Source: a candidate division WOR-3 bacterium (GTDB lineage Bacteria; Hydrothermota; Hydrothermia; LBFQ01). From it: a DNA stretch of 15,218 bases. Shown piece after piece: positions 8,900-13,650 of the stretch (the first letter of the stretch is position 1; the number at the start of each line of letters is the position of its first letter). A model generated the notes under the pieces. It saw only the letters and a program-made list of their open reading frames with translations. It was not told the DNA's origin and did not search any database. The stretch is from the NCBI GenBank assembly GCA_027050205.1, contig JALUCS010000049.1, positions 1 to 15,218 of the forward strand, read 5' to 3'. The position numbers were made by a program, and so were the translations under genes.

Positions 8900-8927
8900 T
8901 TTAGGCCACACGGCGGCGTTTCGGGGG

Positions 8928-8933
8928 TATAAT
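8928..8933 (+). promoter_or_regulatory. Putative -10 box (TATAAT) 8 nt upstream of the ankyrin gene ATG
   Basis: Consensus TATAAT-ATCTTCCT-ATG with no SD. Confidence 0.65.
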
Positions 8934-8941
8934 ATCTTCCT

Positions 8942-10810
8942 ATGCTGAGTATAATACTTACATTAGATCTATGTGGTGTTGTGGAAGAGGGGGATTATAA
9001 AACTTTGGTTAGTGCTGTAGAAAAGGGAGAGGAGGACTTTAGGGTAAAGTGTAAGAATGATAGATCATTACTTGATATAGCTATTGAAAATGCTGAGATT
9101 CACAATAACAATAATAATGGTTATATAAATATAATAAGGTATCTTGTGGAAAAATTCATAGGAAGTGGTGGGGTTTGGTATTATACGTCTTCGGGGAGGA
9201 CACTTTTGCATTTTGCAGCTTATGCAGGTGATTCAAGTCAGGTTAAACATATTATAAAAAAGTTTAAGGTAAATGTTCTTCCTACCGATTATATCCACGA
9301 CAACGATATTGATTACATACAGTACATCAGGTATATTCGTGAGATTGAAAGAAGAGAGGTTAACGCAAAGGATAAGAGTGGCAAAACTCCACTGCATATA
9401 GCCGCAGAAAAAGGACATATAAGTATTGTGAGATACCTAATAAACCATGGGGCCGACGTTAATGTAAAAGACAAGGATGATAGAACTCCATTGCATATGG
9501 CTGTAGAAAATGGCCATATGGATGTTGTTAGGATTTTGGTAAAACACAGGACAAATATTAACGCAAAGGATAAGAGTGGCAAAACCCCACTGCATATAGC
9601 CGCAGAAAAAGGACATATAAGTATTGTGAGATACCTAATAAACCATGGGGCCGACGTTAATGCAAAAGATTCAGAAATTTTAACTATAGCTGCAAGATGG
9701 GGTTATCTAGACATTGTAAGGTATTTAGTTAAACACGGTGTTAATATTAATACAGGTGATCCATTGCTTGAAGCGGTGAGATGGGGTCATATGGATGTTG
9801 TGAGTTATTTGGTTGAACATGGAGCTGATGTTAATATCAGTACGGAGGATGGATGGACTCCATTGCACGAAGCCGCAAAATGGGGACGCGTCAATATAGT
9901 TAGGTATTTAATAAACCATGGTGCTGACATCAATACGAAGGGATGGACTCCATTGCATGAGGCAGCGGAATGGGGACATACAGATGTTATGAAATACTTA
10001 ATAGAATACGGTGCTGATGTTAATGCAAAGGATTCTGAAGGTAGAACTCCCTTATATATAGCTGCTTTAAGGGGGTATTTGAATGTTGTAAGGTTTTTGG
10101 TTGAACATGGTGCTAATGTTAATCCGGGGGATCGTGATCCATTATATGTGGCTGTAAAGCATAATTATGTAGGTATTGTGAAGTATCTTGTTGAGCATCG
10201 GGCGAATATCCATAATAAAGATTATATGTATGAAGCAGTAAAACGAGGTTATATAGATATTGTAAAATACTTAGCTAATCAAGGGCTTAAGATTACGGAC
10301 AAACATATGTATATTGCTGCAAGAAATGGACATATAAATATTGTCAAGTATTTTATAGAGAAACAAGGTGATGTTATTAATTCTGCCTTACTTGGGTCAG
10401 CAGAAGGAGGGCATACAGACATAGTGAAGTTCTTAGTTGAAAAAAGGGCGGATGTTAATGCGAGGGATAAAGATGGTCGGACATCTCTGCACTTAGCGGC
10501 CTCCAAAGGCCACCTTGAAGTGGTGAAGTATCTCGTTGAGAAGGGTGCAGATGTTAATGCGAAGGATAAAGATGGTAATACGCCTTTGCACTTAGCAGTA
10601 GAAAGGGGACATGCGGACATAGTGAAGTTCTTAGTTGAGCACAAAGCCGATATCAATGCTAGAAATAATAACGGTATTACCCCCTTATGTTTGGCTGAGG
10701 TTCACATAGGTGGATATATAGTTGAGTATTTAATAAAAAATGGAGCTAAAAAGGATAAAAAGCGCTGTGAGAAATATTATAAGGAAAAATTTGGAGGTTG
10801 GGATTTTTAA
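8942..10810 (+). CDS. Ankyrin repeat protein (about 15 clear + 2-3 degenerate repeats)
   Basis: 622 aa of repeated (G)xTPLHxAAxxGHxxIVxYLxxxGADVNAKD units. It is much more AT-rich than the neighbouring synthetase gene. Confidence 0.96.
   Translation: MLSIILTLDLCGVVEEGDYKTLVSAVEKGEEDFRVKCKNDRSLLDIAIENAEIHNNNNNGYINIIRYLVEKFIGSGGVWYYTSSGRTLLHFAAYAGDSSQVKHIIKKFKVNVLPTDYIHDNDIDYIQYIRYIREIERREVNAKDKSGKTPLHIAAEKGHISIVRYLINHGADVNVKDKDDRTPLHMAVENGHMDVVRILVKHRTNINAKDKSGKTPLHIAAEKGHISIVRYLINHGADVNAKDSEILTIAARWGYLDIVRYLVKHGVNINTGDPLLEAVRWGHMDVVSYLVEHGADVNISTEDGWTPLHEAAKWGRVNIVRYLINHGADINTKGWTPLHEAAEWGHTDVMKYLIEYGADVNAKDSEGRTPLYIAALRGYLNVVRFLVEHGANVNPGDRDPLYVAVKHNYVGIVKYLVEHRANIHNKDYMYEAVKRGYIDIVKYLANQGLKITDKHMYIAARNGHINIVKYFIEKQGDVINSALLGSAEGGHTDIVKFLVEKRADVNARDKDGRTSLHLAASKGHLEVVKYLVEKGADVNAKDKDGNTPLHLAVERGHADIVKFLVEHKADINARNNNGITPLCLAEVHIGGYIVEYLIKNGAKKDKKRCEKYYKEKFGGWDF
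9360..9662 (+). repeat. Intragenic direct repeat: 105 bp at 9360-9464 and 9558-9662
   Basis: TTAACGCAAAGGATAAGAGTGGCAAAAC...GGGGCCGACGTTAATG occurs twice with one mismatch (ACT/ACC). The offset is 198 bp, equal to two ankyrin repeats. Confidence 0.92.
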
Positions 10811-10824
10811 TGTGGAGGTTGAAT

Positions 10825-11391
10825 ATGGCTGTTGCGGTTAAGGATATGCCTAAGGATAAAGTCTGGACATACGAAGACTACCTTCGCCTTACGGACGACA
10901 AACGCTATGAAGTCATAAACGGGAGGTTGATAGAGATGCCTGCGCCTACGACCTGGCATCAGGACGTTTCAAGGAATCTTGAGTTTTTGATGTGGAACTT
11001 CGTCCGAGAGAAGGGGTTGGGCAAGGTCTATGACGCCCCCATAGACGTAGTTTTGGGGGATAGGTACGTTCTCCAGCCGGACATAATCTTCATATCCAAG
11101 GAGAGACTCGGAATAATCGGCGAAAAGGCCATAATGGGACCTCCAGATCTCGTCGTTGAGATAATTTCACCCGCTACTGTGCGTAGAGACACGGTCATTA
11201 AGAAGGACATCTATGAGAGGTTCGGAGTCAAGGAGTACTGGATAGTCTATCCGGAGGAGAGGGTCGTTGAGGTGTGGGTTCTGAACGATGAGGGGAAGTA
11301 CGACCTCTTCAACGTAGCCGAGGGGGAGGGTAAGGTTAAGAGTAAAGTGTTGGAAGGGTTTGAGGTTGACCTTAAGGAAGTCTTCAAATGA
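10825..11391 (+). CDS. Uma2 family putative endonuclease, copy 1 (type A)
   Basis: 188 aa from ATG 10825, with GGAGG SD at 10814-10818 (preferred over the track's 10798 start). Motifs YEVINGRLIEMPAP..HQ, QPDIIFI, PDLVVEIISP, K..IYERFGVKEYWIVYP. Confidence 0.92.
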   Translation: MAVAVKDMPKDKVWTYEDYLRLTDDKRYEVINGRLIEMPAPTTWHQDVSRNLEFLMWNFVREKGLGKVYDAPIDVVLGDRYVLQPDIIFISKERLGIIGEKAIMGPPDLVVEIISPATVRRDTVIKKDIYERFGVKEYWIVYPEERVVEVWVLNDEGKYDLFNVAEGEGKVKSKVLEGFEVDLKEVFK

Positions 11392-11409
11392 GGATGAAGG
11401 AGGTTAAAA

Positions 11410-11964
11410 ATGGCCGTTGCAGTTAAGGAGAGGCCAAAGAGAAAAGTTTGGACCTACGAGGATTACCTTCGCCTCACAGACGACAAGCGTTATGAAATAA
11501 TAAACGGGAGGTTGATAGAGATGCCTGCACCCACAGTTTTACATCAAAGGGTCCTGGGTGATCTGTACTACATCTTCAGGGTTAGATTAAAGGGAAAGGG
11601 TGATGTCCTCATATCACCTGTTGATGTTATCCTATCAGATACGGCGGTTGTTCAACCGGATCTCATCTTCATTTCCCGAGAAAGACTTGGAATAGTCAGG
11701 GAGCGTATCTTCGGCCCGCCTGATCTGGTCGTTGAGATAGTTTCACCGAGTAGCTATGGGAGGGACAGATACGAGAAGTTCGTCCTTTACGAGAGGTACG
11801 GGGTAAAGGAGTACTGGATAGTTTTACCTCGTGAAAGGGTTATTGAAGTCTGGTGTCTGAAGGACGGCAAGTACGTTCTGCACGGCGTAGCCGTTGAGGA
11901 AGAGGAGATTGAGTCCTGCGTCCTCAAGGGCTTCAAACTAAAACTTGAGGAGGTATTGAAATGA
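11410..11964 (+). CDS. Uma2 family putative endonuclease, copy 2 (type B)
   Basis: 184 aa. AAGGAGG SD at 11397-11403; motifs HQ, QPDLIFI, PDLVVEIVSP, YGVKEYWIV. Confidence 0.92.
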   Translation: MAVAVKERPKRKVWTYEDYLRLTDDKRYEIINGRLIEMPAPTVLHQRVLGDLYYIFRVRLKGKGDVLISPVDVILSDTAVVQPDLIFISRERLGIVRERIFGPPDLVVEIVSPSSYGRDRYEKFVLYERYGVKEYWIVLPRERVIEVWCLKDGKYVLHGVAVEEEEIESCVLKGFKLKLEEVLK

Positions 11965-12527
11965 AGGAAGCGGTAGTTGATAGGCCAAAGGAGAGAATCT
12001 GGACCTACGGGGATTATTTGAGCGGCCGGATTCCAGCGGAAGTTTCAGAGATTGTAAAAGGTAAGGAGGTTAGAAAGATGCCTACGGGTTTTTCTCACGG
12101 TGCGATAGAGCTACTGATAGCAAACCTACTCCTGAAGTTGAAGGATAGATACAGGATATCCGTTGGGGAAGTGGCTTTACTCCTCTCCCGCTTTCCTTTA
12201 ACCCTTAGAGGTGCGGACGTGGTCGTAATATCTAAGGACAGGTTAAAGGGCATCCTAAAGGGGGCATTAGAGGTACCGCCAGACCTGATAGTTGAGATAG
12301 TCTCACCCTCCGACAGCCTACCCTACATACTTGAGAAGATGGAGGACTACAGGAGGTGGGGGGTGAAGAGGCAGGTTTGGGTTTTCCCGGAGGACAGGGA
12401 GGTGGTTGTGGTTGACGATGGAGGGGTCAGGGCCTTCGGTGAAGGGGATGAGGTGGACCTTCTGGAAGGCGTGAAGTTCAGGCTCAAGGACCTGCTGAAG
12501 GAGGTTGAGGATGAAGGAAATGGTTAA
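11961..12527 (+). CDS. Uma2 family putative endonuclease, copy 3 (divergent type C)
   Basis: 188 aa. ATGA overlap with copy 2 and GAGGAGG SD; motifs EIVKG..MPT..H, RGADVVVI, PDLIVEIVSPSD, KMEDYRRWGVKRQVWVFP. Confidence 0.88.
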   Translation: MKEAVVDRPKERIWTYGDYLSGRIPAEVSEIVKGKEVRKMPTGFSHGAIELLIANLLLKLKDRYRISVGEVALLLSRFPLTLRGADVVVISKDRLKGILKGALEVPPDLIVEIVSPSDSLPYILEKMEDYRRWGVKRQVWVFPEDREVVVVDDGGVRAFGEGDEVDLLEGVKFRLKDLLKEVEDEGNG

Positions 12528-13077
12528 GGATGGGCCGGAGGAGAAGGTCTGGACCTACGAGGACTACCTTCGCCTTACGGACGAGAAGCGCTACGAGGTC
12601 ATAGACGGGAAGTTAATGGGATTGACCACACCCACCCCTTTGCACCAAGGCATTTTAGGGAATATCGTATTCTTAGTATGGGATTTTGTCCGGAAGAGAG
12701 AAGCAGGGAAGATCCTGCATGCTCCCTTAGACGTGGTTTTTAGTGAGAGGTACGTTCTTCAGCCGGACATAGTCTTCATCTCCAAGGATAGACTTGGGAT
12801 AATTGGCGAGAAGGCCATAATGGGACCCCCGGATCTGGTCGTTGAGATAATCTCGCCTGCTACTGTGCGTAGAGACACGGTCATTAAGAAGGACATCTAT
12901 GAGAGGTTCGGAGTCAAGGAGTACTGGATAGTCTATCCGGATGAGAGGGCCGTTGAGGTTTGGGTTTTGAACGACGAGGGTAAGTACGATCTCTTCAACG
13001 TAGCCGAGGGCGAGGGGAAGGTTAGAAGTAAAGTGTTGGAGGGGTTTGAGGTTGACCTTAGGGAGGTTTTCAAATGA
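12511..13077 (+). CDS. Uma2 family putative endonuclease, copy 4 (type A')
   Basis: 188 aa from ATG 12511, with AAGGAGGT SD at 12498-12505; same length as copy 1. The C-terminal two-thirds are nearly identical to copy 1. Confidence 0.92.
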   Translation: MKEMVKDGPEEKVWTYEDYLRLTDEKRYEVIDGKLMGLTTPTPLHQGILGNIVFLVWDFVRKREAGKILHAPLDVVFSERYVLQPDIVFISKDRLGIIGEKAIMGPPDLVVEIISPATVRRDTVIKKDIYERFGVKEYWIVYPDERAVEVWVLNDEGKYDLFNVAEGEGKVRSKVLEGFEVDLREVFK

Positions 13078-13095
13078 GGACGAAGGAGGTTAAAG

Positions 13096-13650
13096 ATGGC
13101 CGTTGCGGTTAAGGAGAGGCCAAAGAGAAAAGTTTGGACCTACGAGGATTACCTTCGCCTCACAGACGACAAGCGTTATGAAATAATAAACGGGAGGTTG
13201 ATAGAGATGCCTGCACCCACAGTTTTACATCAAAGGGTCCTGGGTGATCTGTACTACATCTTCAGGGTTAGATTAAAGGGAAAGGGTGATGTCCTCATAT
13301 CACCTGTTGATGTTATCCTATCAGATACGGCGGTTGTTCAACCGGATCTCATCTTCATTTCCCGAGAAAGACTTGGGATAGTCAGGGAGCGTATCTTCGG
13401 CCCGCCTGATCTGGTCGTTGAGATAGTTTCACCGAGTAGCTACGGGAGGGACAGATACGAGAAGTTCGTTCTTTACGAGAGGTACGGGGTAAAGGAGTAC
13501 TGGATAGTTTTGCCACGCGAGAAGGTGATAGAGATATGGTGTCTGAAAGATGGTAGGTACGTCCTGCACAGCGTCGCTGCTGGCAGCGGGGAAGTTGAGT
13601 CCTGCGTACTTAAGGGCTTCAAGGTGAAGGTTGAAGAGGTTTTGAGGTAA
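13096..13650 (+). CDS. Uma2 family putative endonuclease, copy 5 (type B')
   Basis: 184 aa with AAGGAGG SD. Protein is identical to copy 2 up to YWIVLPRE, then diverges. Confidence 0.92.
   Translation: MAVAVKERPKRKVWTYEDYLRLTDDKRYEIINGRLIEMPAPTVLHQRVLGDLYYIFRVRLKGKGDVLISPVDVILSDTAVVQPDLIFISRERLGIVRERIFGPPDLVVEIVSPSSYGRDRYEKFVLYERYGVKEYWIVLPREKVIEIWCLKDGRYVLHSVAAGSGEVESCVLKGFKVKVEEVLR

Follow-up and report, generated by a model that had tools for sequence, protein, structure and literature searches.

Mosaic Uma2 paralogues in a tandem array of a candidate division WOR-3 bacterium: shared tracts, old helix alleles and a conserved internal Shine-Dalgarno motif

Contig JALUCS010000049.1 of a candidate division WOR-3 bacterium (GenBank assembly GCA_027050205.1) carries five co-oriented tandem Uma2 genes (PF05685), U1 to U5, which lie between acs (an acetate-CoA ligase-like gene) with an ankyrin gene on one side and a convergent hutU on the other. 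The entire contig (C49, 15,218 nucleotides) was analyzed and is referred to as the window; it belongs to a 2.05 Mb genome in 135 contigs that is 93.5% complete. Structures have been solved for members of the large Uma2 family, whose function is only predicted, and the literature asks how cells keep these predicted nucleases under control. The question raised by this array is why certain copies share long tracts of DNA and then diverge abruptly. The mosaic is real and of an ordinary kind; the array has probably been shaped by general homologous recombination (gene conversion or double crossover) among paralogues, within and between arrays, with the helix alleles being kept. All five genes match PF05685 (5/5, 60-127 bits against a curated cut-off of 27), and each has its own ribosome-binding site:

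10825..11391, + strand: U1, Uma2 alpha subfamily, A-type framework
11410..11964, + strand: U2, Uma2 alpha, B-type framework; position and helix allele shared with G002C31_2 of a relative (G002); probable donor of 404 bp
11961..12527, + strand: U3, Uma2 beta subfamily; 4-nt overlap with U2
12511..13077, + strand: U4, Uma2 alpha, A-type framework; the sole window copy that lacks the internal GGAGG and ATG
13096..13650, + strand: U5, Uma2 alpha, B-type; 5' three-quarters near-identical to U2, old 3' end; probable recipient

Shared tracts in the array and across the family

The tracts that these genes share with each other, or with genes elsewhere in the genome, are as follows:

11422..11825, + strand: 404-bp tract, U2 copy, covering the N-subdomain, the variable helix and all four putative catalytic residues
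13108..13511, + strand: 404-bp tract, U5 copy, matching 11422-11825 with 3 synonymous mismatches
11826..11961, + strand: U2-specific 3' end, C-terminal beta strands; best other match 86%
11173..11255, + strand: 83-bp block of U1, identical to U4 at 12859-12941
12268..12374, + strand: 107 bp of U3, shared without mismatch with a beta gene of the array on contig C132
10864..10907, + strand: 44 bp of U1, an exact match to the first gene in the contig C122 array

U2 and U5 are fully identical over 269 bp (11422-11690 and 13108-13376), and through 11825 they mismatch at just three positions, 11691, 11757, and 11784 (3/404 bp), all of them synonymous, as the two proteins do not differ before residue 143. 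Beyond 11826/13512, 38 of the 136 nucleotides differ (up to 13647 in U5), with 12 amino-acid changes. The abrupt divergence that a previous, sequence-only reading of this DNA had placed at these positions is exact in its coordinates, and it is significant when synonymous codons alone are considered (MaxChi, p = 0.001); at four-fold degenerate sites, 3/60 differ before the break and 10/14 after it. The break sits at residue 139, past all putative catalytic residues and ahead of the C-terminal strands, so that the two proteins differ only in 12 C-terminal residues.

The 83-bp block of U1 and U4, also proposed in that reading, is likewise exact. It comprises 30 identical codons in a row (single-pair p = 0.0002, in a run test on 141 same-residue codons with 41 synonymous differences), and when all sites are counted it clears the 5% threshold set for the whole family, which it fails to do on third positions alone. 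A third proposed tract, a 29-mer at 10915-10943 in U1, is indeed exact in U1, U2, and U5 and differs at 10 positions in U4, but as evidence of conversion it is weak (single-pair p = 0.029). An exact tract of at least 29 nt is found somewhere in 38 of the 231 paralogue pairs of this genome, the 29-nt stretch itself is identical in 36/4512 cross-genome pairs, and it is U4, not U1, that is the most deviant of 104 genes over this stretch. The 29-nt tract is better explained by nucleotide-level constraint than by conversion. The 107-bp identity between U3 and the C132 gene is additional to the tracts noticed before.

A genome-wide iterated profile search returned 41 Uma2 hits. Of these, 37 are full-length copies, each of which belongs to one of eight tandem arrays with 3-6 members: 22 alpha (U1, U2, U4, and U5 included), 6 beta (U3 included), and 9 gamma. 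For comparison, 40 loci were fetched from relatives, covering part of their arrays; after beta, gamma, and partial genes were dropped from 151 sequences, 104 full-length alpha genes from 7 genomes remained. Repeated recombination or conversion among paralogues, as the sequence-only reading had it, is borne out by the pairwise tests above, by a GENECONV-like permutation test (all sites: 23/231 alpha, 10/15 beta, and 20/36 gamma pairs significant; third positions only: 5, 5, and 12 pairs), and by a PHI-like test (p ≤ 0.0033). The 37 full-length genes share 92 exact tracts of at least 35 nt, which are distributed along the whole framework. Among 88 within-genome tracts of at least 45 nt, 29 lie within one array, as compared with 114/844 of the pairs, and the U2/U5 tract is both the longest of them and the only one across the middle of the variable segment, V. 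Exact tracts of 77-107 nt are present in all six other genomes examined.

It had further been suggested that the breakpoints fall at conserved motifs. The data are consistent with this suggestion but do not demonstrate it: five framework chimeras in the genus switch within wide intervals devoid of diagnostic sites, where random crossovers would also map, and tracts always seem to end at the first variable site past a conserved motif, with or without a crossover preference for such motifs. All five chimeras are 5' B-type and 3' A-type, which amounts to about four independent events and is not significant. Neither of two chi-like octamers tested is over-represented (z = 0.2 and 0.6). A search of the genome and the 40 relatives' loci for donors of the divergent 3' ends of U2 and U5 returned nothing above 86% (best 0.86 and 0.81).

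Framework turnover, helix alleles and the route of exchange

According to an AlphaFold2 model (pLDDT 91.6), U2 has a PD-(D/E)XK fold like that of TT1808. Foldseek matches the model to 6okh (TM 0.91, E 7e-20) and 1wdj (E 8e-10), and also to 9y1l and 3ot2. The family motif has been defined as H, PD, and E with a migrated K (PMC551604). In the alpha genes, the corresponding putative active-site residues D84, E109, and K123 are present in 104/104 and H45 in 103/104. The V segment consists of the helix after the catalytic His and the next strand:

11533..11619, + strand: V of U2, residues 42-70 (helix 43-59, loop, strand 64-68 in the model)
10948-11040, 12634-12726 and 13219-13305, + strand: V equivalents of U1, U4 and U5, respectively

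Framework and V have different histories. The best hit of a segment is in its own genome for 70 (N), 62 (M), 68 (C1), and 71 (C2) of the 104 alpha genes; for V, it is so in only 20/104 (random expectation 16%). V alleles form 74 clusters, 16 of which span genomes, and in trees of 68 genes the middle and C-terminal parts cluster by genome (p = 0.002 each) and V does not. For instance, U2 and G002C31_2, which lies behind acs in G002, have the same V allele, with 2/21 synonymous sites different, a level like that of the neighboring acs (57/435), whereas synonymous differences in their framework amount to 8.5/18, 16/25, 13.8/22, and 25.8/29. The framework thus turns over faster than the variable-looking helix. 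The main long-run effect of the exchange is framework turnover around old helix alleles, not the rapid creation of new specificities.

In the mechanism proposed here as likely, the array belongs to a genome in which the family has expanded to eight or more tandem Uma2 operons. Paralogues that are 60-90% alike would swap tracts whose length ranges from tens to hundreds of bases, both inside an array and from one array to another; the exchange would proceed by gene conversion or double crossover and without a dedicated recombinase. It would often affect the framework and seldom the divergent helix behind the catalytic His, and old helix alleles would outlast species splits while frameworks get overwritten. 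The exception in the window would be one recent long event in which a 404-bp 5' part, along with the helix, was copied, most likely with U2 as the source and U5 as the recipient, and U5 kept its old C-terminal strands. The event is read as a 5' copy because neither 3' end has a close donor, and U2 is favored as the donor because of its synteny with G002. Both RecA and MutS are encoded in the genome, and general homologous recombination is the simplest route. The data show the tracts, their significance, the two-copy depth, and the contrast between framework and helix; RecA dependence, the direction of the copy, and any function are what we infer from them. NucS was not found in the 93.5% complete genome. 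A lack of mismatch repair is not supported as a cause: the genome encodes MutS, and one contig ends in a MutL_C match that falls short of the cut-off. A diversity-generating retroelement was rejected as well: there is no RVT_1 match, and the U2/U5 substitution spectrum is mixed, with 16/38 changes at A in U2.

Several observations weigh against this account. The U2-to-U5 direction rests on synteny with one genome, the 3' ends are without an exact donor, and no gene carrying the lost 5' part of U5 was identified; the transfer may have been conversion or two crossovers. With third positions only, 5/231 alpha pairs remain significant, and U1/U4 is not among them. The tree of the N segment lacks genome clustering (p = 0.086), homogenization is modest (median best identity 0.86-0.90 in the own genome and 0.85-0.89 in other genomes), and the syntenic partner of U1 has another V allele (0.47). 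The 33 same-allele pairs were chosen on V identity, which biases their V divergence toward low values; positive selection on V between species was not detected in these pairs, with pN/pS 0.14-0.17 in all five segments. Lastly, the depth data discussed below come from contigs of what is perhaps the source sample.

The alternative that survives best, in line with the selfish-element idea of Feder and Bujnicki, is that the Uma2 nucleases themselves set off shuffling and spread by nicking or breaking DNA in or near the arrays, with repair from paralogues; this would change the trigger and leave the repair route unaltered. The intact putative active site fits this idea, as does the lineage-specific expansion (9/11 same-family genomes, up to 34 hits), and recombinogenic activity of these nucleases has been proposed (PMC551604). 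However, Uma2 nuclease activity is itself a prediction in that source, and paralogues of a second tandem family, DUF5618, also share exact tracts (30-50 nt in 5/36 pairs, shorter than those of Uma2), which points to a genome-wide tendency. Self-driven exchange is judged improbable.

Programmed shuffling, in which a site-specific recombinase swaps cassettes at fixed repeats and so varies specificity in the population, as in hsdS invertons or the pneumococcal tvr locus, is less probable still and already largely refuted. The proteins are modular, and switches recur in the PPDLVVE and EYW regions. A contig over the U1 variable segment (10878-11065) has a depth of 146.8, below its neighbors (209-267), which could be population variation and is possibly strain variation at this allele. 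Nevertheless, none of the 11 scanned window proteins carries a recombinase domain, in agreement with the sequence-only reading; no resolvase or reverse transcriptase was found in the 93.5% complete genome, and its two tyrosine recombinases are both on contigs without Uma2 hits. The loose analogy to hsdS shuffling drawn in that reading fails on recombinase and inversion alike: the copies are co-oriented, each with a ribosome-binding site, and among the 25 longest inverted repeats there is not one whose two arms both fall inside the array. Tracts run across the whole framework instead of lying at fixed sites, the U2/U5 changes are not adenine-specific, and U3 and U4 sit at flank depth, which argues that a 1686-bp deletion form, or any other excised form, is not common.

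An assembly artefact, whereby collapsed repeats or strain chimeras made the identical tracts, was the concern that the sequence-only reading itself had raised. The assembly is of metagenome type and in 135 contigs, and the 269-bp identical stretch exceeds the 127-bp contig-end overlaps, a length inferred to be the assembler k. Contig depth was examined in public assembled contigs (not reads) of run X1, possibly the source sample, the best public matching data being labeled hydrothermal vent metagenome; runs X2-X4, which cover just small shares, were left out. The public matches listed included no RNA data set, which says nothing about expression. The contig on 13108-13337 has a depth of 472.6, about twice that of six single-copy contigs (209-267). 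Its first base comes directly after the last position at which U2 and U5 differ, and it departs from the window at one letter. The U5 breakpoint and the U4-U5 junction are each covered without differences by a single contig (13482-13863, which starts 30 nt before the breakpoint and continues into the hutU flank, and 12912-13137). Furthermore, three substitutions tell the U2 and U5 copies apart, 127 bp exceeds the length of the 83-, 107-, and 41-bp tracts, and the exact 77-107-nt tracts recur in the other genomes. The shared tracts are not an assembly collapse, and an artefact is most unlikely as their source.

Equally unlikely is a single U1-U2 block duplication followed by uneven selection or mutation rate: U1-U2 and U4-U5 do lie on a single gapless diagonal (offset 1686), but the patchwork lies in synonymous sites, and the tests refute the duplication unless all those sites are under selection. 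The sequence-only reading, too, had denied that one duplication with uniform drift could produce the patchwork. The V alleles of U1 and U4 differ and have separate counterparts in other species (0.92-0.94 and 0.83). A second array likewise has an 18-nt spacer behind A-type genes, so that the diagonal needs no duplication.

A conserved Shine-Dalgarno motif within the genes

The 29-nt tract contains a GGAGGT and an in-frame ATG, which have counterparts in all window copies except U4:

10922..10938, + strand: U1, GGAGGT and in-frame ATG (10936), inside the 29-nt tract; would give a 151-aa isoform
11507..11523, + strand: U2, GGAGGT and in-frame ATG (11521, Met38); would give a 147-aa isoform
12065..12080, + strand: U3, GGAGGT (Lys-Glu-Val codons) and in-frame ATG (12078); would give a 149-aa isoform
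13193..13209, + strand: U5, GGAGGT and in-frame ATG (13207); would give a 147-aa isoform

Among 67 conserved degenerate codon columns, only N32, G33, R34, and E181 use a single codon in at least 95% of genes. In overlapping genes, the E181 codon coincides with the ribosome-binding site of the gene that follows, and hence serves as a natural positive control. At G33, GGG is used in 103/104 alpha genes (15-36% at other invariant Gly columns); at R34, AGG is used in 103/103 (34/104 at R27); and L35 is TTR in 104/104. These codons hold despite a third-position GC content (GC3) of 0.35-0.62 across the genomes, with Y28, E29, E37, and P39 varying freely. Since the same codons are fixed in seven genomes and their neighbors are free, the freeze is hard to ascribe to conversion. 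In the alpha genes, 9 nt separate GGAGG from Met38. In the beta genes (19/19), Lys/Glu-Glu-Val codons spell GGAGGT at a distance of 8 nt from the homologous ATG; in the gamma genes (10/10), Pro-Glu codons spell GGAGG 5 nt ahead of it. Genome-wide, no more than 192/6003 internal Met codons are preceded by GGAGG at 4-10 nt; at first ATGs, the spacing is mostly 5-10 nt. This pattern of codon usage indicates that the tract is conserved for its Shine-Dalgarno motif under nucleotide-level selection.

The role of the motif is a separate matter. Judging from the codons and spacing, use as an internal start, yielding an isoform of about 147 aa, is slightly favored; a role in pausing or mRNA stability may also be considered. 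A short form exists in nature, as the Uma2 protein WP_000009552.1 of a Bacillus thuringiensis plasmid is annotated with 154 aa and starts just before this region. A distant member of the phylum has the motif in a three-gene array (-10 to -12 kcal/mol) and lacks it in its solo copy. The signal is limited by the relatedness of the 104 genes, the fact that the site was found after looking, the family-wide frequency of Met at or beside this position, and the absence of GGAGG and ATG from U4. Nor is the motif a general feature of Uma2 genes in other phyla, and an internal start across the family is not supported: among 22 viral-contig and plasmid genes outside the lineage, 2 reach -10 kcal/mol and 0 beat the synonymous null at p < 0.05. 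No conserved RNA structure of note was seen over the frozen codons (consensus energy -2.7), nor was a shared internal start seen in the DUF5618 genes (1/9).

By analogy with Rpn proteins, the short isoform is possibly an inhibitor. It is conceivable, if rather doubtful, that the array Uma2 genes are genes-within-genes, each encoding a long nuclease and a restraining short form that would begin just ahead of the variable helix and lack the N-terminal subdomain, and that the helix alleles would be specificity modules (for a target or partner), retained as a repertoire for defense and moved onto new frameworks by motif-anchored conversion. If true, this arrangement would explain how about 40 apparently intact "solo toxins" are tolerated without an antitoxin gene.

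The locus, its relatives and known systems

Upstream of U1, two further features were delineated:

8903..8933, + strand: promoter-like leader with a TATAAT hexamer at 8928-8933
8942..10810, + strand: ankyrin-repeat gene, 38% GC, between the leader and U1; missing at the syntenic G002 locus

The leader element also stands upstream of the C122 array and of the syntenic array in G002, and may act as a promoter, as its hexamer and recurrence suggest; a sigma-70 scan did not include the TATAAT element (8928-8933) among its predictions. In G002, nothing separates the leader from the first Uma2 gene, which gives the ankyrin gene the appearance of having been inserted at the start of the operon. Two of its repeats (9360-9471 and 9558-9669) are 98% identical over 112 nt, the result of a recent intragenic duplication or conversion. 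Just upstream of the C122 array (about 19160-19270), a degenerate copy of about 100 bp of the acs 3' end adjoins the same leader, which suggests that this array may have been seeded from the window locus. Directly behind the syntenic pair (G002C31_2) in G002 (L043), about 45 nt remain of a third Uma2 gene, a sign of array contraction. The stretches fetched at hutU of G002, G004, and G006 and at acs of G003 and G006 have no Uma2 match, which indicates that array positions are unstable across the genus. In the present genome, contig C110 holds two broken Uma2 remnants (about 10940-11150 and 130-462), one with an in-frame stop and a frameshift.

Uma2 is expanded in the family to which the genome belongs; most other families searched have none, and 15 of 272 phylum genomes have a match at E ≤ 1e-20. 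DUF5618, which we take to be HEPN-like, is co-expanded (10 matches in this genome and 25 in G009). In four genomes, its genes border on Uma2 arrays or are interspersed with them, at eight loci in all (contigs concerned: C73, C94, C11, C67, C93 of this genome; C8, C86 of G002; C14, C39, C58 of G004; C10 of G005). Pattern scans of metagenome and genome collections for close strains were empty, and near relatives may be absent from those collections.

The closest known systems include the Uma2/COG4636/DUF820 cassettes, with the same family, fold, H-PD-ExxK-type site, and lineage-specific expansion. Uma2 has been defined as a family in which tandem copies are rare and mostly pairs, with selfish recombinogenic nucleases proposed (PMC551604), and as a likely solo toxin forming paralogue cassettes (PMC2701414). 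Here, in contrast to such rarity, all 37 full-length copies are in arrays of 3-6. The parts consulted of these two papers contain no description of conversion mosaics or an internal start, and no publication title was found on Uma2 conversion, internal start, or PDC-S03, with Uma2 and internal-start terms never combined. All five window proteins match PADLOC models of PDC-S03 (best E 1e-47 to 3e-10). All 145 PDCs (phage defense candidates) are described as untested and were predicted from embedding in BREX, DISARM, or type I restriction-modification loci (10.1101/2024.01.29.577857), a context that the window lacks.

Shuffling of hsdS depends on invertases or recombinases and dedicated repeats (PMC7672463 for invertons; PMC6265443 for SpnIV tvr). 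Like hsdS loci, the Uma2 array recombines paralogous segments, and chimeric proteins are possible; unlike them, it showed no invertase or recombinase, defined repeats, or hsdRM context. The hsdS loci switch within clonal populations.

The fold of Rpn proteins is also assigned to the PD-(D/E)XK type. Uma2 and Rpn have both undergone expansions, with Rpn tandem arrays in Thermosynechococcus (PMC9403480), and in-frame internal starts, covered in 10.1101/520783, make Rpn antitoxins, RpnS being a small variable C-terminal tail (PMC10400941). The likeness lies in nuclease paralogues with an in-frame internal start and ribosome-binding site, here as a sequence signature that U4 lacks. The difference is that a Uma2 short form would start at residue 38, lose 37 N-terminal residues, and keep H45, D84, E109, and K123. 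The frozen internal Shine-Dalgarno-ATG is a new lead, a solid sequence signal with a putative role, and it could explain why Uma2 has been hard to assign.

Interlocus gene conversion in multigene families retains islands of divergence. The Uma2 arrays resemble such families in their shared homogenized frameworks, old divergent segment, variable tract lengths, and greater exchange between neighbors, and closeness within the genome is found for the middle and C-terminal parts, is absent for V, and is mixed for N. Mosaicism alone adds little, as conversion in tandem paralogues is expected. The helix alleles shared across species point to a segment that may bear on specificity. In mechanism, the Uma2 arrays and interlocus gene conversion would not differ.

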